Assembly (NCBI GenBank): GCA_041658645.1 | Contig: JBAZZV010000004.1 | Coordinates: 112,552-176,551, forward strand | Source: Candidatus Margulisiibacteriota bacterium | GTDB taxonomy: Bacteria > Margulisbacteria > WOR-1 > O2-12-FULL-45-9 > XYB2-FULL-48-7 | Direction of reading: 5' to 3' | DNA: 64,000 nt | Made by a program: the position numbers and the translations under genes | Shown: piece by piece, positions 3,757-61,970 of the stretch | Layout of the letters: every line of letters begins with the position of its first letter | Position numbering within the stretch: position 1 is the first letter of the stretch | The notes under the pieces: model-generated | Database searches by the model: none | What the model was told of the DNA's origin: nothing | Seen by the model: the letters and a program-made list of their open reading frames with translations, nothing else

Positions 3757-6282
3757 ATGGCTGACCAAAGCCCGATGGTCAAGCAATACCAGGAGATCAA
3801 GGCCCTCCACCAGGACGCTATCCTGTTTTTCCGTCTGGGTGATTTTTATGAGATGTTTTATGAGGACGCGGCTCTGGCTTCTCGCGAATTAGACCTGACG
3901 CTGACCGGCCGCGGCAAGGATGACAACCGGATGCCGATGTGCGGGCTCCCTTACCACGCGGCCGAAGGTTATATCGCCAAGCTGATCGAGAAAGGTTACA
4001 AGGTCGCGATCTGCGAACAGGTCGAAGATCCCGCCCAGGCTAAAGGTTTGGTTAAGCGCGATATTGTCCGGATAGTTACCCCCGGGACGGTCTTCGAAGC
4101 CTCCATGCTGGCCGAGAAGAGCAGTAATTACCTGATGGCGGTCAACCACGATAAGGGGAACTTCGGTTTGGCTTACGTTGACGCGACCACCGGCGAGTTC
4201 AAACTGGCTGACTTTGCTTCGTTCACTCAGCTGGCGGATGAGATCGCGCGGGTCAGTCCTGCTGAATTGCTTGTTTCAGATGTTTTTCCGCAAAACCTGG
4301 AACCGCGACGTTCAGTCGCAGGTTCCAAGTATAAAGATATTTACGACGGCGCGACGGCCGGCGAGAAACTTCTCGAGCATTTCCAGGTCAGGTCGCTCGA
4401 ATCGTTCGGTTTAACGGGGAAAGAAACGGCGCTGGGTGCGGCGGCCGCCATTATCGATTATTTGAAAGAGACGCAGAAGACGCGCCTCGACCATATTAAC
4501 AAACTCCAATATTACCGCCCGGCCGATTTTATGTTCATCGATACAGTGACCCGGCGAAATTTAGAATTAGTCCAAACGGCCCGCGATAAATCGGCGCGGG
4601 GGAGCTTGCTCAATGTCCTTGACCGGACGCGGACGCCGATGGGAGGGCGCTTGCTCCGGCAATGGCTCCTCCAGCCGCTCTTGAATGTGGCGGCGATCAA
4701 TGCTCGTCTGGACGCGGTGGAAGAATTGTTCCATCACGGCTTGAACCGCGCCGAGTTGAGCGCCGGCCTGAAAGATATCTTCGACTTGGAACGGCTGACC
4801 GGAAAAATCGCCAACCGTTCGGCTAACGCCCGCGACCTGGTCGCCCTGAAAGAATCGCTTCGCCAGCTCCCCAAGATCCGCGCCATTCTCTCCCGCTGTC
4901 AGGCTAAACTGCTGACCGATGGCGTGCTGGCCAGTGATACGGAACATTTTTCCACGGTCATCCAGCTGGTTGACCAGGCCATTGTCCCCGAACCACCGCT
5001 CCTCCTGAAAGAGGGTGGTTTGATCCGGTCGGGATACAACGCTGAACTTGATGAACTGAAGAGCGCTTCCGGCGGCGGCCGGCAATGGATCGCGGAACTA
5101 GAGGCGCAGGAGCGCCAGCGGACCGGGATCAAGTCGCTCAAGGTTGGCTATACCAGGGTCTTCGGTTATTACATCGAGGTATCGAATTCCAACCTCGAGT
5201 GGGTGCCGACCGATTATATCCGCAAACAGACGCTGGTCAATGCCGAACGATTCATCACCCCGGAATTGAAAGAGAAAGAGTCGTTCATCCTCAATGCCGA
5301 CGAGCGCTTGCAAGAGTTGGAATACCAGCTCTTCGGCGCGGTGCGTGATGGGGTGGCGGCGCATGTGCGCCAACTGCAGACGATGGCGGCGAAAGTCGCC
5401 GAGATCGACGTTCTCCTCTCTTTAGCCGAAGTGGCGGTGGAGAACCGTTATTGCCGGCCAGTTTTTGAGGATGTAGGGACAGGGCTTGTCCCTGTCCGTG
5501 GACAGCCACAAGGGCTGTCCCTACATATAAAAGAATCCCGCCATCCGGTCGTCGAAAAAACTTTAGGCGAGTTCCAGTTCGTCCCCAACGATGTCCGAAT
5601 GGCCGATGATTCCCGCTTCCTCCTGATCACCGGACCGAATATGGGGGGGAAGTCGACTTACATGAGACAGGTGGCGCTGATCAGCCTGTTGGCGCAAATG
5701 GGTTCGTTCGTTCCGGCGCAGCAAGCGGAGTTATGCCTGGTCGACCGGATCTTTTCCCGGATCGGGGCGATGGACGATATTTATTCCGGACAGTCGACCT
5801 TTATGGTCGAAATGACCGAGACCGCCAATATCCTAAATAACGCGACCGAGAGGAGCCTGATCATCCTGGACGAGATCGGGCGGGGGACCTCCACTTTTGA
5901 CGGGATGTCGATTGCCGCGGCGGTGGCCGAGTTTATCCACCAGAAGATCGGCGCCAAGACACTGTTCGCTACTCACTACCACGAGCTCACCCAACTGGCC
6001 GAGAAACACCCGGGGATGAAGAATTTGAATTTGCTGGTCACGGAATCGGGCGACCAGGTGACTTTTCTGCGCAAAGTGGGTGAGGGGCCGGCGGACCGGT
6101 CATACGGCATCCAGGTGGCCAAGTTGGCCGGCTTACCGCCGGAAGTAGTGGCCCGGGCCAAGGAAGTCTACGCGACGCTGGAAATGGTCGAGAACGACCT
6201 CGGACAAAAAAAGCCCTCCACAATCAAGAAGAAATCAGGTAAAATAAGTCCGGTCACTAAGGCGCAAGCCAGTTTGTTTTGA
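3757..6282 (+). CDS. mutS: DNA mismatch repair protein MutS
   Basis: 841 aa. N-terminal TPMMKQY-like MVKQYQEIK, Walker A GPNMGGKST, STFMVEM and DEIGRGTST motifs are present. Confidence 0.97.
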   Translation: MADQSPMVKQYQEIKALHQDAILFFRLGDFYEMFYEDAALASRELDLTLTGRGKDDNRMPMCGLPYHAAEGYIAKLIEKGYKVAICEQVEDPAQAKGLVKRDIVRIVTPGTVFEASMLAEKSSNYLMAVNHDKGNFGLAYVDATTGEFKLADFASFTQLADEIARVSPAELLVSDVFPQNLEPRRSVAGSKYKDIYDGATAGEKLLEHFQVRSLESFGLTGKETALGAAAAIIDYLKETQKTRLDHINKLQYYRPADFMFIDTVTRRNLELVQTARDKSARGSLLNVLDRTRTPMGGRLLRQWLLQPLLNVAAINARLDAVEELFHHGLNRAELSAGLKDIFDLERLTGKIANRSANARDLVALKESLRQLPKIRAILSRCQAKLLTDGVLASDTEHFSTVIQLVDQAIVPEPPLLLKEGGLIRSGYNAELDELKSASGGGRQWIAELEAQERQRTGIKSLKVGYTRVFGYYIEVSNSNLEWVPTDYIRKQTLVNAERFITPELKEKESFILNADERLQELEYQLFGAVRDGVAAHVRQLQTMAAKVAEIDVLLSLAEVAVENRYCRPVFEDVGTGLVPVRGQPQGLSLHIKESRHPVVEKTLGEFQFVPNDVRMADDSRFLLITGPNMGGKSTYMRQVALISLLAQMGSFVPAQQAELCLVDRIFSRIGAMDDIYSGQSTFMVEMTETANILNNATERSLIILDEIGRGTSTFDGMSIAAAVAEFIHQKIGAKTLFATHYHELTQLAEKHPGMKNLNLLVTESGDQVTFLRKVGEGPADRSYGIQVAKLAGLPPEVVARAKEVYATLEMVENDLGQKKPSTIKKKSGKISPVTKAQASLF
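5473..5524. repeat. Double-hairpin GTAG...CTAC palindrome embedded in frame in mutS
   Basis: Sequence is GTAGGGACAGGGCTTGTCCCTGTCCGTGGACAGCCACAAGGGCTGTCCCTAC. It has a 10-bp outer stem and two 8-bp inner hairpins and encodes VGTGLVPVRGQPQGLSL. Confidence 0.8.
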
Positions 6283-10978: not shown

Positions 10979-12379
10979 GTGCAGATCGTTCTGGCCGGTT
11001 ATAACCTTGACGCCGAAGTCCTGGCTGAATTATTGCAAGCCGCCCCCCGCGCGGATGCCACGCCGGAGACCCTCTCGGCCGCTTACGCCCGGATCTCCCG
11101 CGATCCCCGGCCAATCACCGAGTTGCGCCGGGCGGCCCGCCAGGAAGTGGAGAAAGCGCGCCGCAGTAACGCCAATATCATTTTCAAGATGGGGCACCAT
11201 TCGGTGGCCGAACATGCCGTTTTTAATTTTGACCTGATCGATGTCTCCCGCCTGGCCCTGGAGGAGATCGAGAAATTCCGCCTCTGTTCCTATACGGAAA
11301 AATCACAACGCTACCAGAAGCTCGAGGGCAACTTTATCGTTCCGGAAGAAATACGAACCACGAACCACGAACCACTATTCACGTCCCTTCTCGCCAAGCA
11401 GAATAAATATTATGGGGAACTCCTCGCGCGGGGGATCGAGGCGGAGGACGCCCGCTACGTGACCCCCCTGGCCACGACCGGCCAGGTCGGGATGACGCTT
11501 AATGCCCGCAACCTGGAACTCCTGCTCCGCCGTTTTGCTTCGAGCCAGTTGGCGGAAGTTCGCCAGATCGGGCAAACCATGTATGAACTCGTCTCGAAGA
11601 TCGCTCCGTCGATCATCCTCTTTACCGCGGCCAACGATTTTGACGGCAAGACCTACGCGGAGTTAAGGGCTGGGGTTAAGGGGAACCGGAAAAGAAAACT
11701 CTCTGCCCGCTGTCAGTTGGTCGATTATACCAGGGATGCCGACCTAAAATTGATCGCCGCGCTCCTGCACACTTCGACCGGGACATCTTTTATCAATTGC
11801 CGCCGGCTGGCGAAAGCGCTGTCCAAAAAGGAGCGGCTGGAGTTCGTCAAAAAAGCCTGCCGTCATATGGAATTCTACGATTCGACTTTGCGCGAGTTTG
11901 AACATGTCGTCCTGACTTATGACCTGGTCATGTCCTCCAGTTGTTTCGGCCAGATGAAGCGGCACCGCCTGGCGACGATCACCAGCCAGCCTTACCAGGT
12001 CGAGTTGGGAGTGACCGTCCCGCCCAAACTGCGGGCGGCGGGTGAAGAAAATAATTATTTGCGATTGATGGCGGAGACGGAAGAAGTTTTCCGTCAACTG
12101 GCCGCAACCGTGCCGGCGGCGGCCCCCTACGTCCTGACCGGCGCCCACCGCAAACGTTCCCTGCTGACCGTCAATGCCCGGGAGCTTTACCATATCTCGC
12201 GCCTGCGCGAAGATAGCCATGCCCAGTGGGAGATCCGCGAGGTCAGCGCCGAGCTGACCCAGTTCGCCCGGCGGGTCATGCCGCTGACGATGCTGACCAT
12301 TGGCGGCAAAGATAGTTACGTCGCTGTTTACCGGCAGGTCTTTGGCCGGGAGCCGAAGATCGCGCCGCCGAAAGAGTAA
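10979..12379 (+). CDS. thyX: FAD-dependent thymidylate synthase ThyX, double-length (two fused ThyX-like halves)
   Basis: 466 aa with a GTG start. Half 1 has HHSVAEHAVFNF and SQRYQ. Half 2 has RHRLATITSQ and NARELYHISRLR. Confidence 0.85.
   Translation: MQIVLAGYNLDAEVLAELLQAAPRADATPETLSAAYARISRDPRPITELRRAARQEVEKARRSNANIIFKMGHHSVAEHAVFNFDLIDVSRLALEEIEKFRLCSYTEKSQRYQKLEGNFIVPEEIRTTNHEPLFTSLLAKQNKYYGELLARGIEAEDARYVTPLATTGQVGMTLNARNLELLLRRFASSQLAEVRQIGQTMYELVSKIAPSIILFTAANDFDGKTYAELRAGVKGNRKRKLSARCQLVDYTRDADLKLIAALLHTSTGTSFINCRRLAKALSKKERLEFVKKACRHMEFYDSTLREFEHVVLTYDLVMSSSCFGQMKRHRLATITSQPYQVELGVTVPPKLRAAGEENNYLRLMAETEEVFRQLAATVPAAAPYVLTGAHRKRSLLTVNARELYHISRLREDSHAQWEIREVSAELTQFARRVMPLTMLTIGGKDSYVAVYRQVFGREPKIAPPKE
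11353..11375. repeat. (ACGAACC)x3 heptamer array in frame in thyX
   Basis: ACGAACCACGAACCACGAACCAC is identical as a 23-mer to 28274..28296 in hisF. It encodes RTTNHEP. Confidence 0.9.
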
Positions 12380-27657: not shown

Positions 27658-27878
27658 TCAAAAAGATCCCGCGCGGTGAGGTCAGGACCTACGGTTGGGT
27701 GGCGCGGCAGATCGGCCAACCCGGCGCGGCCCGGGCGGTCGGTAACGCCTTGAACAAAAATCCTTTTGCGCCGATCGTCCCTTGCCATCGGGTCGTGGCC
27801 AAAAATGGCCCGGGGGGATTTGCCTGGGGGGCCAAGGCCAAGGTACAATTGTTACGAAGTGAGGGTTATAAATGCTAG
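27606..27878 (+). CDS. Minimal methylated-DNA--protein-cysteine methyltransferase (C-terminal domain only)
   Basis: 90 aa with PCHRVV active site and a helix-turn-helix ([10 protein letters not shown]...AARAVGNAL). It overlaps the PHP gene by 52 nt. Confidence 0.8.
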
Positions 27879-28651
27879 CTAAAAGAATAATTCCTTGTCT
27901 CGATGTGACCGCAGGCCGGGTCGTCAAAGGGGTCAAATTCGTCGACCTGATCGATGCCGGCGATCCGGTCGAACAAGCCATCTTTTACGACAAAGCAGGG
28001 GCCGATGAGCTCGTTTTCCTCGATATCACCGCTTCGTCCGACAAACGCTACATCATGCTCGAGGTCGTCCGCCGCGTAGCGGAGAAGGTCTTTATTCCGT
28101 TCACCGTCGGCGGCGGGATCAACGATCTGGAAACGATGCGTGAGATACTGTCCGGCGGTGCCGATAAGGTCTCGGTCAATACTGCGGCGATCAAAGACCC
28201 CAGCCTGATCACCCGGGGGGCGGAGAAATTCGGCAGTCAGTGTATCGTCGTTGCCATTGACGCCAAACGAATCACGAACCACGAACCACGAACCACGACG
28301 CCGAAATGGGAAGTATATACGCATGGGGGGAGGACGGCGACGGGGCTGGATGCGGTAGAGTGGGCGAAGAAGGCGGAAAAATTGGGCGCTGGAGAGATCC
28401 TTCTGACCAGCATGGATTGCGACGGGACCAAGAATGGCTACGATCTGGAACTTACTCGGGCGATCGCTGACGCGGTCAACATACCGGTCATCGCCTCCGG
28501 CGGGGCCGGGACAAAAGAACACATCTATGAGGCATTTTCGCGCGGGAGCGCTGACGCGGCCTTGCTCGCTTCGCTCCTCCATTTCCGCGAACTGACGATC
28601 AGGGAGATCAAGGACCATCTGGAAGCGAAAGGAATTACCGTAAGACGGTAA
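27872..28651 (+). CDS. hisF: Imidazole glycerol phosphate synthase cyclase subunit
   Basis: 259 aa and collinear with HisF throughout ([51 protein letters not shown]). Confidence 0.96.
28266..28300. repeat. (CACGAAC)n heptamer array in frame in hisF
   Basis: Units are AACGAAT CACGAAC CACGAAC CACGAAC CACGACG. It contains the same 23-mer as thyX 11353..11375 and encodes [10 protein letters not shown]. Confidence 0.9.
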
Positions 28652-28676
28652 TGACTAATGTCTAATGACTAATGAC
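28649..28676. repeat. (TAATGAC)x4 heptamer array spanning the hisF stop and the polyprenyl synthase start
   Basis: Units are TAATGAC TAATGTC TAATGAC TAATGAC. The first TAA is the hisF stop, and the ATG at 28665 is inside unit 3. Confidence 0.9.
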
Positions 28677-29480
28677 GAATTAAGGAATATTAATCGAGAA
28701 TTAAACCGGATTCTCCCAAGAAAAGGGAAGCTGGCGAAGGCGATGCGGTATTCGGTCCTGGCCGGGGGGAAAAGGTTCCGGCCGCAACTTTGCCTGCTGA
28801 CCGCTAAAGTGCTTGGTGGTCGGCCGAAAAAAGTTTTGCCGTTCGCCTGCGCAGTAGAGATGATCCATACTTTTACGCTGGTCCATGACGACCTGCCGGC
28901 TATGGACAACTCGGACCTGCGCCGCGGCCAGCCGACCTGCCATAAAGCCTTTGGCGAAGGGGTGGCGATCCTGGCCGGAGACGCGCTCAGTACGCTGGCT
29001 TTTAAACTGATCGCCCGATATCCGACGGCGGTTGAAGAGCTGTCCAGGGCCTTGCTTGAAGTGGTCGAGGGACAGGTGGCCGATCTCGAATCGGCCAACC
29101 GGCAGCCGACGCTGGCCGAGTTGCGCCATATCCACGGCTGGAAAACAGCGGCCCTCCTCAAGGCGTGCGTCAGAGGGACGGCCAAGATCTGCGGCGCGAC
29201 GCCGGGTGAGATCCGGGCGCTAACCGCCTATGCCAAACATCTCGGGCTCGCTTTTCAGATCGCCGATGATATACTTGATGCCACGGCGAGCGAAGCGGAG
29301 CTGGGGAAGCCGGTCCGGGCGGACGAGAAGAAAGGTTATGTTTACCTGGTCGGACTCGACCGTTCCCGGCGGATGGCCGCTACGGAGAAAGATCAAGCCA
29401 TCAAGGCTTTAAGAATTTTTCGTGGCAAAGCAGCGCCGTTGGTCGAATTGGCGGAGTTTGTTCTGATCAGGAAGAAATAG
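28665..29480 (+). CDS. Polyprenyl (farnesyl/geranylgeranyl) diphosphate synthase
   Basis: 271 aa with GGKRFRP, the first DDxxD LVHDDLPAMDNSDLRRG and the second FQIADDILD. Confidence 0.9.
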   Translation: MTNDELRNINRELNRILPRKGKLAKAMRYSVLAGGKRFRPQLCLLTAKVLGGRPKKVLPFACAVEMIHTFTLVHDDLPAMDNSDLRRGQPTCHKAFGEGVAILAGDALSTLAFKLIARYPTAVEELSRALLEVVEGQVADLESANRQPTLAELRHIHGWKTAALLKACVRGTAKICGATPGEIRALTAYAKHLGLAFQIADDILDATASEAELGKPVRADEKKGYVYLVGLDRSRRMAATEKDQAIKALRIFRGKAAPLVELAEFVLIRKK

Positions 29481-48997: not shown

Positions 48998-50620
48998 ATG
49001 GCTCAACAGCGACTGGCGCAACTTGTTCGGGCGGCGCTGGCAGCCCTCGGCGTACCAGAGCCGCTCCCCTTTAAGGTCGAGAGCTCCCCGCGCAAGGAGT
49101 ACGGCGATTATGCCGTCAACGCGGCGATCATCGGCGCGAAGAAGTTTTCCCGCAATCCTCTGGAGCTGGCTGCCGAGCTGTCGGCCAAGATCAAGGAATT
49201 GGATGCCGGCCAGCTCATCGCCAAACTTGATATAGTCAAACCCGGCTTTATCAATATTTTCCTCAAAGACGCTTACCTGCAACAAAATCTTTGCCAGATT
49301 ATTGAACAGGACCATAACTATGGGATGGGAAAGCGACTGACGATTGACGACGGACGACCGATGACTGTTTTGCTCGAGTTTGTTTCAGCCAACCCAACAG
49401 GACCCCTCCACGTCGGCCACGGCCGCTGGGCGGTGGTCGGCGACGTGATCGCCCGGCTCCTGCGGGCCGATGGCTGGGCGGTCAGTACCGAATTCTACGT
49501 CAATAATGTCGGCAATCAGGTCGAGAAACTCTGGCTCTCCGTCCAGGCGGCCCGGGCCGGCCAGCCTGTTCCGGAGGGGGGCTATGGCGGAGTTTATATC
49601 AAAGACGTCGAGGGGGAGACCAAGGCAGAAGCCCTGGCTTCGATCCTGGCCGGGCAGAAGCAGGCGCTGGCCCAGGTCGGGGTAAGTTTTGATAATTTCT
49701 TTTTTGAAAATACATTACATGATGCTGGCAAGGTCCGCGGAGCGGTCAAACAGTTAGAGGTGATGGGGAAGACGGTCATCGAGGGTGGGGCGGTCTGGTT
49801 TAAATCGCAGGAGATGGGGGACGACAAGAACCGGGTCCTGATCAAGGAAGACGGACTGTCGACCTATTTTGCCGCCGACATCGCTTATCATCTCGATAAG
49901 TTCCAGCGCGGTTTCCACCGGCTGATCAACATCTGGGGAGCCGACCACCACGGTTACGTCAAACGGTTGAAGGCGGCGCTCCAGGCGCTTGGCCTGCCGG
50001 TCGAGAACTTCGATATTATCATCGGCCAGCTGGTCACGCTCTACCGGGGGGAGGAGCCGGTCAGGATGTCGAAGCGGACCGGCGAAATGGTCACCCTCCA
50101 GGAAGTGCTCGATGAGGTCGGCTCGGACGCGACCCGGTTCTTCTTCGCGGCGACCGACGTTAACTCCCATCTTGATTTTGACCTAGAACTGGCCAAGAAA
50201 AAATCGAACGATAATCCGGTCTACTACGTCCAGTACGCGCACGCGAGGATTTGCAGTATCCTGAAGAAATCCGCCTCACCCCCTTCCGTCCCCCTCTCCA
50301 TCAAAGATGGAGAGGGGGAAACTCCGACGATAGTCGGAGAGGGGGTGAGGATTGATCTATCCGCATTGAAGCATCCGGCTGAGCGAGAACTAATGCTTAA
50401 GCTGTTAACCTGGCCAGAGATGGTTAGCCTGGCCGCGCGACTGCGCCAGCCGCACCGGATCACCGAATATGGCAAGGAGCTGGCGATCGTTTTTCACCAC
50501 TTTTACGAGCAGTGCCGCGTGCTGGGTGATCCGTCGAGAATAGTGCTGGTAAATGCTTCTCGAATCACCCTCCGGAATGTGTTAGAATTACTGGGAATAA
50601 CGGCCCCGGAATCAATGTAG
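48998..50620 (+). CDS. argS: Arginine--tRNA ligase
   Basis: 540 aa with SANPTGPLHVGHGR (HIGH), the MSKR-type KMSKS motif VRMSKRTG, and a DALR anticodon-binding domain. Confidence 0.96.
   Translation: MAQQRLAQLVRAALAALGVPEPLPFKVESSPRKEYGDYAVNAAIIGAKKFSRNPLELAAELSAKIKELDAGQLIAKLDIVKPGFINIFLKDAYLQQNLCQIIEQDHNYGMGKRLTIDDGRPMTVLLEFVSANPTGPLHVGHGRWAVVGDVIARLLRADGWAVSTEFYVNNVGNQVEKLWLSVQAARAGQPVPEGGYGGVYIKDVEGETKAEALASILAGQKQALAQVGVSFDNFFFENTLHDAGKVRGAVKQLEVMGKTVIEGGAVWFKSQEMGDDKNRVLIKEDGLSTYFAADIAYHLDKFQRGFHRLINIWGADHHGYVKRLKAALQALGLPVENFDIIIGQLVTLYRGEEPVRMSKRTGEMVTLQEVLDEVGSDATRFFFAATDVNSHLDFDLELAKKKSNDNPVYYVQYAHARICSILKKSASPPSVPLSIKDGEGETPTIVGEGVRIDLSALKHPAERELMLKLLTWPEMVSLAARLRQPHRITEYGKELAIVFHHFYEQCRVLGDPSRIVLVNASRITLRNVLELLGITAPESM
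50274..50350. repeat. Nested-palindrome element inserted in frame in argS
   Basis: It has arms CCTCACCCCC / GGGGGTGAGG and inner hairpins CCCCCTCTCCAT/ATGGAGAGGGGG and CTCCGAC/GTCGGAG. It encodes ASPPSVPLSIKDGEGETPTIVGEGVR. Confidence 0.85.
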
Positions 50621-61058: not shown

Positions 61059-61884
61059 AATAAAAAAAGTCCTGCCTAAAAGACACCCGGGGACCCACAA
61101 GGGTGATTACGGCCGCGTCCTGATCGTGGCCGGTTCAAAAGGGATGCTGGGCGCGGGAGTTTTGGCCGCGCGCGCCGCTTTGCGGGCCGGCGCAGGAGTC
61201 GTCTATTGGGCCGTGCCGGACGATCTGGTCAACTTAGCCAACACCATCACGCCGGAAATCATTGTCATCCAGCATAAACAGATCACAGAAATAAAAGTTG
61301 ATGTTGTCGCTATCGGTCCAGGTTTGGGAACATCGGAGCAAACCAAAAAACTTTTGTCGTTAGTCGTTAGCCTGCCTGCCGGCAAGGCAGGTCGTCAGTC
61401 GTTAGTTGTTATTGACGCTGATGCCTTGAACGTTATTGCCAAGCACCCCCAACTTTTGCCCAAGGACAAGAACAAGGACAAGAATATATTGACCCCCCAC
61501 CCAGGCGAAATGTCCCGTCTCCTTGGACAAAGCGTTGCTTCGATCCAGGCTGACCGCCCGGCTGCGGCTAAATTGGCAGCAGCCAAGTTCAACGCGATCG
61601 TGGTACTCAAGGGAGATAAAACGGTCGTGGCTAACCCGCAGGGGAAGGTTTACTTGAACAACACTGGCAATCCCGGTATGGGGACGGCCGGCTCGGGTGA
61701 CGTTCTAACCGGGCTGATCGCCGGTTTGCTCGGACAAGTCCCGTCCGCTTATGAGGCCGCCCAGATCGGCGTCTATCTGCACGGGCTGGCGGGCGACCTG
61801 GCGGCTAAAGAGAAAGGCGAGGTCAGCTTGATCGCTTCCGACCTTGTCGACTACGTTCCGGCTGCTGTATTACGTAACTCGTAA
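61045..61884 (+). CDS. ADP-dependent NAD(P)H-hydrate dehydratase (YjeF C-terminal type)
   Basis: 279 aa with HKGDYGRVLIVAGS, IDADAL, LTPHPGE and GNPGMGTAGSGDVLTG. It carries two low-complexity inserts. Confidence 0.9.
   Translation: MLKSEIKKVLPKRHPGTHKGDYGRVLIVAGSKGMLGAGVLAARAALRAGAGVVYWAVPDDLVNLANTITPEIIVIQHKQITEIKVDVVAIGPGLGTSEQTKKLLSLVVSLPAGKAGRQSLVVIDADALNVIAKHPQLLPKDKNKDKNILTPHPGEMSRLLGQSVASIQADRPAAAKLAAAKFNAIVVLKGDKTVVANPQGKVYLNNTGNPGMGTAGSGDVLTGLIAGLLGQVPSAYEAAQIGVYLHGLAGDLAAKEKGEVSLIASDLVDYVPAAVLRNS
61356..61411. repeat. Eight-unit phased heptamer array (GTCGTTA family) in frame in the dehydratase gene
   Basis: Units are GTCGTTA GTCGTTA GCCTGCC TGCCGGC AAGGCAG GTCGTCA GTCGTTA GTTGTTA. 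The central three units form the hairpin CCTGCCT/AGGCAGG. Confidence 0.8.
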
Positions 61885-61970
61885 TGCGTAACGTGTAATG
61901 CGTAATTGGTTATTGGAATTTGGATATTGATATTTGTTTTGAGGTTTGAAGTTGGATGTTTGAGGTTGTA
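61873..61970. repeat. Fourteen-unit phased heptamer array filling the nnr-mlaE spacer
   Basis: Units are CGTAACT CGTAATG CGTAACG TGTAATG CGTAATT GGTTATT GGAATTT GGATATT GATATTT GTTTTGA GGTTTGA AGTTGGA TGTTTGA GGTTGTA. It contains the dehydratase TAA stop. Confidence 0.85.

Follow-up and report, generated by a model that had tools for sequence, protein, structure and literature searches.

We analyzed a stretch of 64,000 nucleotides from a Candidatus Margulisiibacteriota bacterium (contig JBAZZV010000004.1, positions 112,552 to 176,551; hereafter the window), in which thyX and hisF carry the same heptanucleotide array in their coding sequences, 17 kb apart. The thyX gene (10979..12379, plus strand) encodes a flavin-dependent thymidylate synthase of 466 aa with two Thy1 domains (E 7.5e-64). 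The hisF gene (27872..28651, plus strand) encodes the cyclase subunit of imidazole glycerol phosphate synthase, a protein of 259 aa with a His_biosynth domain (E 2.2e-86). The names of the closest homologues of ThyX and HisF assign them to Margulisbacteria, candidate division WOR-1, or Saganbacteria, which together form the non-photosynthetic sister group of Cyanobacteria. Both arrays were located inside the conserved domains and not in intergenic DNA.

The exact 23-mer ACGAACCACGAACCACGAACCAC was found twice in the window, both times on the plus strand, at 11353-11375 in thyX and at 28274-28296 in hisF, precisely where an initial annotation had placed it. It was not matched once across 100 dinucleotide-preserving shuffles. 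A copy with one mismatch at 28267-28289 is the hisF array displaced by one unit. No reverse-strand copy, target duplication, or inverted partner of the 23-mer was detected in the 64-kb window. The complete heptamer zone of thyX (11353..11383, plus strand) consists of three ACGAACC units, which make up the 23-mer, followed by ACTATTC and ACG, and encodes R126-T-T-N-H-E-P-L-F-T. The zone of hisF (28267..28301, plus strand) consists of ACGAATC, three ACGAACC units, and ACGACGC, and its first unit takes in the conserved Lys-Arg codons (A|CGA). Tandem-repeat analysis gave copy numbers of 3.3 for thyX and 4.6 for hisF (the latter with Tandem Repeats Finder). The array peptides, RTTNHEP at ThyX residues 126-132 and NHEPRTT within HisF residues 134-145, are circular permutations of each other because, over three units of 7 nt, translation passes through all three phases. 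The permutation had been pointed out in the initial annotation, together with the arithmetic behind it (3 x 7 = 21 nt), and direct reading of the two frames confirmed both. The sequences flanking the two arrays are unrelated, with nothing in common beyond ACGA.

Two metagenome runs, one from a landfill (X1) and one from groundwater (X2), hold the window sequence, and the evidence from both is at the level of assembled contigs. The thyX and hisF arrays were reproduced with no differences in contigs of these independent runs and are therefore not an assembly artefact. In X1, the window allele was present alone at a depth of ~1160-1240. In X2, it was present (depth ~101) together with a minor strain (~44, or ~30% of the depth). 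The thyX array of the minor strain carries the substitutions 11364 A>T, 11365 C>T, and 11376 T>G, giving ACGATTC in units 2 and 4, and is identical to that of the metagenome contig L123; the hisF gene of this strain was not recovered from X2. No insertions or deletions were observed in either array in the X1 and X2 contigs, where all differences were substitutions, and rare variants would escape data of this kind.

A third array was found outside the window in contigs of both runs. It matches positions 28265-28299 with two differences, and its depth in X1 was genome-like (1347 versus 1238). Its flanks, AATCCGCCAAAATAATCACCTCTCAACGAA and CTACAAATCGCCATTATCACCGCCGGAACT, are unrelated to those of the thyX and hisF arrays, and neither the window nor any of the fetched loci had a match to the 30 nt on either side. 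This third array of the genome is probably intergenic, as its flanks on the opposite strand resemble a stop codon and a Shine-Dalgarno sequence, judging from 30 nt per side.

The thyX site in related genomes

We compared the thyX site among relatives, whose loci and proteins are given here with L and P numbers, respectively. The initial annotation had described both arrays as tolerated protein insertions and had expected a 7-aa insert in ThyX upon alignment with orthologs. However, when 120 orthologs were aligned, the heptamer-coded ThyX residues lined up position by position with only three exceptions, in which the length of the site differs (P0123, 7 aa longer; the distant P0142 and P0229, 2-3 residues shorter). 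The description therefore stands for hisF, in which the array is a real 7-aa loop insert, and for the tolerance of both arrays in essential enzymes, but not for thyX, which has no insert.

The thyX array is bounded by conserved codons 21 nt apart: its left side has ATA CGA, for I-R, and its right side has CGA TTC ACG, for R-F-T. At this site, L123 (95% identity) reads ACGAACC, ACGATTC, ACGAACC, ACGATTC, and L001 (89% identity) reads ACGAGGG, ACGGACC, ACGAACC, ACGATTC. More distant relatives carry other units: ACGAGGG, ACGAAGG, ACGAAGG, ACGATTC in L168 (69% identity); GGTAAGG, GGTAAGG, GGTATGA, GGTAAGA in L124 (69% identity); and CGAGGGA, CGGGGGA, TGAGGGG in L125 (65% identity). Period-7 self-identity over the 39-nt site was 0.47-0.75 in the window and these relatives of 95-65% identity. 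No 7-nt periodicity was detected at the site of the relatives with 50-58% identity (L126, L127, L128, L129, and L131), in which self-identity was 0.22-0.41 and the protein has G-S-D-L-E-K-D-F-type peptides of unchanged length. According to the initial annotation, orthologs that carry the same residues and lack the repeat structure at the DNA level would point to ancestral sequence rather than an insertion. The comparison agreed with this by half: ThyX orthologs of the same length exist, some of them with partial repeat structure and the deeper ones with none.

The variable bases of the thyX units change in concert. In the outgroups they are GGG or AGG; L001 has ACC in units 2-3, and the window has it in units 1-3. 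Because the change from AGG or GGG to ACC occurred in several units concertedly, independent point mutation is an unlikely source. The window, L123, and L001 have ACGAACC as unit 3 in common, and HEP is found again in the protein at 70% identity; the ACC unit 3 is older than the split from L001. In the L124 array, GGTAAGG in phase 3 would be read as a TAA stop, and the unit in that phase has TAT instead. Selection for an open frame is visible in this array. In the AlphaFold model of ThyX, residues 121-130 are coil and a helix (residues 131-150) starts directly after them; the site is ordered, with a predicted local distance difference test (pLDDT) score of ~94. ThyX of Thermotoga maritima has a longer variable stretch at the position of the array.

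A different type of sequence was observed in L167 (1107-2528), whose ThyX (P0123) is 87% identical. A 21-nt palindrome, GGCCTGCCTGCCGGCAGGCCG, lies at the exact thyX site and adds seven residues (GLPAGRP). It is not a heptamer array, and it is the only length change at the thyX site among the nearest relatives.

Insertions in the HisF loop

In contrast to the thyX array, the hisF array is a net gain of 21 nt (7 aa) over orthologs of 252 aa, and relatives of this length are gapped exactly at the array. An alignment with HisF-LUCA (PDB 4evz) likewise gave an 8-residue gap exactly at this site, which corresponds to the hairpin loop after the catalytic AIDAK strand. In the AlphaFold model of HisF, residues 134-145 form a coil between strands 125-133 and 146-150, with a mean pLDDT of 85.5 that is locally lower.

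We then examined 120 HisF relatives. The segment from AIDAK to W(E)VYTHGG has 5-6 residues, typically K[IT]GDKK, in 58 of the 120 and is longer in the rest. Among the longer loops, 13 residues (+7) is the most frequent length, and the inserts vary in size (+2, +4, +5, +6, +7, and +14 aa). A tree of the 120 sequences was built with the loop columns removed, and branch support was assessed with the Shimodaira-Hasegawa-like approximate likelihood ratio test (SH-aLRT). HisF proteins with and without an insert were sisters in at least nine branches with SH-aLRT values of at least 95, and the insert state requires a minimum of 29 changes over the tree. Judging from these sequences, the HisF loop is a hotspot at which heptamer-coded inserts have been gained or lost many times in Margulisbacteria, with the unit differing by lineage.

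The DNA of the loop was compared at eight loci. The window carries CGAATCA and three CGAACCA units, and L002 carries CGAATCA twice, CGATTCA, and CGAAACA. L162 has a perfect CGACAGT array of 4.7 copies, and L163 has approximately eight CTAGTAA-type units. The remaining arrays are CGAGTTG, TGAGTTC, GGAGTTG, GGAGTTC in L164; AGGGTCG, AGGGGCG, GGGGGCG in L165, which is short and degenerate; and AGGGTCA, CGGGTCA, and CGAGTCA twice in L166. L161 has no insert and reads CGAGTTCAGAATAATAAA. The three nearest HisF relatives of the window, which belong to one clade (SH-aLRT 99), have 4.7 copies of CGACAGT, no insert, and ~8 CTAGTAA-type units, respectively. In all seven arrays, which include at least five different units, the periodic zone starts at the conserved Arg codon after AIDAK. 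Furthermore, L164 repeats CGAGTTx, which corresponds to CGAGTTC, the sequence that the insert-free relative L161 has at this place.

Heptamer arrays elsewhere and the ACGAACC unit

Strong arrays in the window were of period 7 only, among periods 5 to 11, with three observed versus none in shuffles. Nine strong period-7 arrays were found in 162 kb of the relatives' contigs and none in 270 kb of unrelated loci, and no other period from 5 to 11 was found in the Margulisbacteria sequences scanned. These results indicate that heptamer arrays mark this lineage. An array of 4.6 TAATGAC units, a different heptamer family, is located at 28649..28680 (plus strand) and spans the stop codon of hisF and the ATG of the next gene (polyprenyl synthase). 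Its presence shows that heptamer arrays of several units coexist here. A degenerate ACGA-type array (ACGACTG, ACGATTG, ACGACGG, ACGACCG) is located at 49334..49367 (plus strand), in frame in a 540-aa open reading frame (ORF; KRLTIDDGRPMTV). The intergenic spacer at 61873-61970 contains phased heptamers in which CGTAACG and CGTAATG drift to TTGGATA-type units. The other unit families of the window are situated at gene junctions.

MutS has a comparable site after NRYCRPV. The window has a palindromic element, FEDVGTGLVPVRGQPQGLSLHIK, at this site (5443-5550), and L001 has an in-frame (CAGTCAT)x4 array at 1935-1962, encoding ISQQSSVIE. The L001 array starts on the local codons CCA GTC.

To place the ACGAACC unit in a wider context, we scanned one genome per species and found ACGAACC arrays at 120 or more loci in more than 10 phyla, many of them as inverted pairs or compounded with drifting units. 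Inverted pairs 50-300 nt apart were observed in other phyla, for example in L011, L025, L055, L100, L111, L116, and L120. When ten long ORFs with ACGAACC arrays from other phyla were compared with Pfam, the arrays fell in linkers, termini, or read-through regions, and the idea that they lie inside domains there was dropped. In a collection of viral contigs searched with 20-mers, the ACGAACC array was found at 20 loci, three composition-matched permuted heptamers were found at 11, 7, and 23 loci, and two octamers were found at 3 and 2 loci. Shuffled heptamer arrays were thus about five times commoner than octamer arrays. Since the permuted heptamers were equally frequent, we rejected ACGAACC as a special element shared across phyla. 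Arrays are common whatever the heptamer, and ACGAACC holds no privileged place among them. The work of Mrazek et al. (2007), as far as its summaries go (PMC4679880, PMC4692102), is in line with heptamer arrays being common.

In addition, heptamer arrays were observed within ~80 nt on each side of genes for four-helix-bundle proteins, which resemble the 23S rRNA intervening sequence (IVS) protein, in other phyla (L078, 6493-7057; L107, 4474-5052 and 6422-6859; L089, 483-895). A link between such cassettes and the thyX and hisF arrays was considered and rejected: a gene of this kind occurs within 8 kb of only 3 of the 120 ACGAACC loci and is absent from the window, where tblastn with two such proteins gave no match. 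A coupling of the thyX and hisF units across genomes was also rejected. Six other genomes that have both ThyX and a HisF with an insert were paired, with the two genes presumed to lie on the same contig from the identical lengths of their contigs, and all six encode unrelated peptides at the two sites.

Origin of the arrays and relation to known repeats

On balance, we lean toward the view that the thyX and hisF arrays are resident, locally anchored heptanucleotide arrays of the kind known as short tandemly repeated repetitive (STRR) sequences or heptamer simple sequence repeats (SSR), kept regular by conversion-type homogenization. Each array sits at its own permissive protein site, anchored on conserved codons of its gene (the Arg codon CGA after A, giving ACGA). 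Arrays would be created or resized in place when replication misaligns or switches template at a local 7-nt seed. In essential genes, only frame-keeping changes would survive, which would explain a change of 21 nt in hisF and of 0 nt in thyX. Conversion-type homogenization between neighboring units would keep the arrays regular and would allow a variant unit to sweep through. The identity of the thyX and hisF arrays would then reflect two ACGA-anchored arrays homogenized to the same three variable bases (ACC), by convergence or by inter-locus conversion, and not the insertion of one mobile block. Several points weigh against this account. Three arrays of one unit in a single genome (thyX, hisF, and the third locus) exceed what local seeding alone predicts. 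The CGAACCA unit of hisF matches the local CGAGTTC of the insert-free relative in CGA only, which makes an exclusively local origin a weak explanation of this array. A single-step gain of 21 nt is not the product of simple one-unit slippage. Moreover, assembled contigs hide rare length variants.

The main rival to local anchoring is copying between loci, in which an existing (ACGAACC)n array, either the third, probably intergenic, copy or the array of one of the two genes, would serve as template through a template switch at ACGA microhomology or through short-patch conversion. We regard this as possible but doubtful. The identical 23-mer in two genes and a third array at genome-like depth are what it would predict, and the two arrays seem to differ in the ancestor from which ACC was reached: the thyX clade has ACGAGGG or ACGAAGG, and ACGAATC is found as the first unit of hisF and in L002. 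Periodicity in thyX with no change in length would also arise more easily by replacement than by slippage, and single-unit families of 49 to 169 loci have been published for which there is "no mechanism evident" (PMC2700814, PMC4679880). However, only ~30 nt of homology would be available for copying, and a donor was not found. The stronger form of the idea, proposed in the initial annotation as the spread of one pre-formed array by insertion, finds no support in view of the unrelated flanks, the unchanged length of thyX, the start of each array on the conserved Arg codon of its own gene, the ACGAACC unit 3 that the thyX array shares with its 95%- and 89%-identity relatives and the HEP peptide at 70%, and the six of six genomes with no common unit at the two sites; the flanks, the age of unit 3, and the six genomes count against inter-locus copying in general as well. 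Copying in the weaker sense of conversion between similar arrays may still be compatible with the data, given the third array with this unit in the genome. A broader proposal, which we consider rather unlikely, is that Margulisbacteria, and perhaps the whole sister clade of Cyanobacteria, have a process that re-templates short DNA into phased heptamers with no change in length and keeps arrays of one family alike across loci; the thyX sequence would have been replaced where it stood, at a net 0 nt, and hisF would have grown by 21 nt, both taking on the unit of a genome-wide ACGAACC family.

The remaining explanations seem weaker. The two arrays could be causally unlinked products of independent slippage that match by coincidence. 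Any heptamer unit makes arrays at comparable frequency, the Arg anchors force ACGA and leave three free bases (1 in 64 a priori), and among many arrays in a genome some pairs will match. Nevertheless, we judge coincidence quite unlikely in view of the third copy of the ACGAACC unit in the genome and of the slippage itself, which in steps of one unit would frameshift essential genes; the concerted change to ACC in several units per array also calls for a homogenizing process at the least. It is very unlikely that a discrete mobile mini-element, that is, a 21-23-nt ACGAACC cassette resembling a Rickettsia palindromic element (RPE) or a miniature inverted-repeat transposable element (MITE), or an arm left by a four-helix-bundle cassette, was inserted in frame in both genes. 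The true +21 nt and the many recent gains in the hisF loop fit such an element, as do the heptamer arrays flanking four-helix-bundle genes in other phyla (L078, L107, and L089), the frequent inverted pairing of ACGAACC arrays there, and the palindromic elements at the same permissive sites in the L167 ThyX and the window MutS. However, thyX has no insertion, and the window has neither an inverted partner, a target duplication, a common flank, nor a four-helix-bundle gene, which only 3 of the 120 ACGAACC loci have within 8 kb. The lengths of the hisF inserts are also not fixed, and the units contain codons of the host gene itself. Finally, a heptamer inside a coding sequence is the classical layout of a phase-variable contingency locus. 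Three units encode a heptad here as they do in NeuO (PMC3046976), and a change in their number would turn thyX or hisF on or off in the way of the AAGACTC repeats of neuO. Such switching is hardly credible for arrays of 3-5 units in single-copy housekeeping enzymes, with positions conserved across relatives and with a substitution allele as the only variant, free of indels in both arrays, in runs at depths of ~1200 and 110-145.

Dispersed heptamer families have been known in cyanobacteria since 1990, when Mazel et al. (cited in PMC4692102) reportedly described STRR heptamers in Calothrix and Nostoc. Families reported since then include GGGAATC of Xanthomonas and GGGGAYT of Nostoc (PMC4692102), TAACTGA of Beggiatoaceae, Cyanobacteria, and Bacteroidetes (PMC4679880), and GGGACCG of Geobacter metallireducens, with 49 intergenic and intragenic copies (PMC2700814). 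No mechanism for the origin or spread of dispersed heptamer families is evident (PMC4679880). The arrays described here resemble these families in having a 7-nt unit, ~3-5 tandem units, the same unit at several loci, several families per genome, some intragenic copies, and an unexplained origin and spread. Most copies of the published families lie between genes, and they have been discussed as elements of regulation or as G-quadruplexes, whereas the present arrays lie inside catalytic domains on conserved codons, and orthologous sites carry other units at unchanged protein length in thyX. STRR in the strict sense belong to heterocystous cyanobacteria and have the units CCCCAGT, TTGGTCA, and CAACAGT, whereas here the host belongs to Margulisbacteria, the sister group of Cyanobacteria, and the unit is ACGAACC. 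With at least three tandem units above chance and a unit at several dispersed loci, the ACGAACC arrays can be classed as STRR-like or heptamer SSR.

Two other systems invite comparison. In the poly-psi variable number tandem repeat of neuO (Escherichia coli K1 prophage CUS-3), AAGACTC is repeated 2-93 times (PMC3046976). As in neuO, the heptamers are in frame and three units give a 7-residue heptad (RLKTQDS in neuO and TNHEPRT here). However, neuO is a hypervariable N-terminal on/off switch with dozens of units, whereas here 3-5 internal units lie in housekeeping genes with no length polymorphism in the contigs. Like RPEs, the hisF array is a short repeat tolerated as extra residues in a surface loop of an essential protein. 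Unlike RPEs, the arrays have no palindrome, fixed length, or conserved ends, and thyX has no insertion.

As an isolated observation, the pair of arrays adds another example to a known class of repeats. No mention of heptamers together with Margulisbacteria was found in the searchable literature. As far as that literature goes, the turnover at a fixed site seen in these alignments, with different units at orthologous positions of catalytic domains and no change in length in thyX, appears not to have been described. The comparative series for thyX and hisF presents the same position in dozens of relatives with no repeats, degenerate repeats, or perfect repeats of different units, with a change in length in hisF alone. 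This series makes it possible to test growth from a local seed against copying from elsewhere and homogenization within loci against homogenization between them. The data also show how much repeat-driven turnover is absorbed by a catalytic-domain loop beside Asp130 of HisF. If the re-templating process were real, orthologous protein loops would preserve a natural record of how repeats are written or converted, and they would bear on the 35-year-old question of how single-unit families spread.

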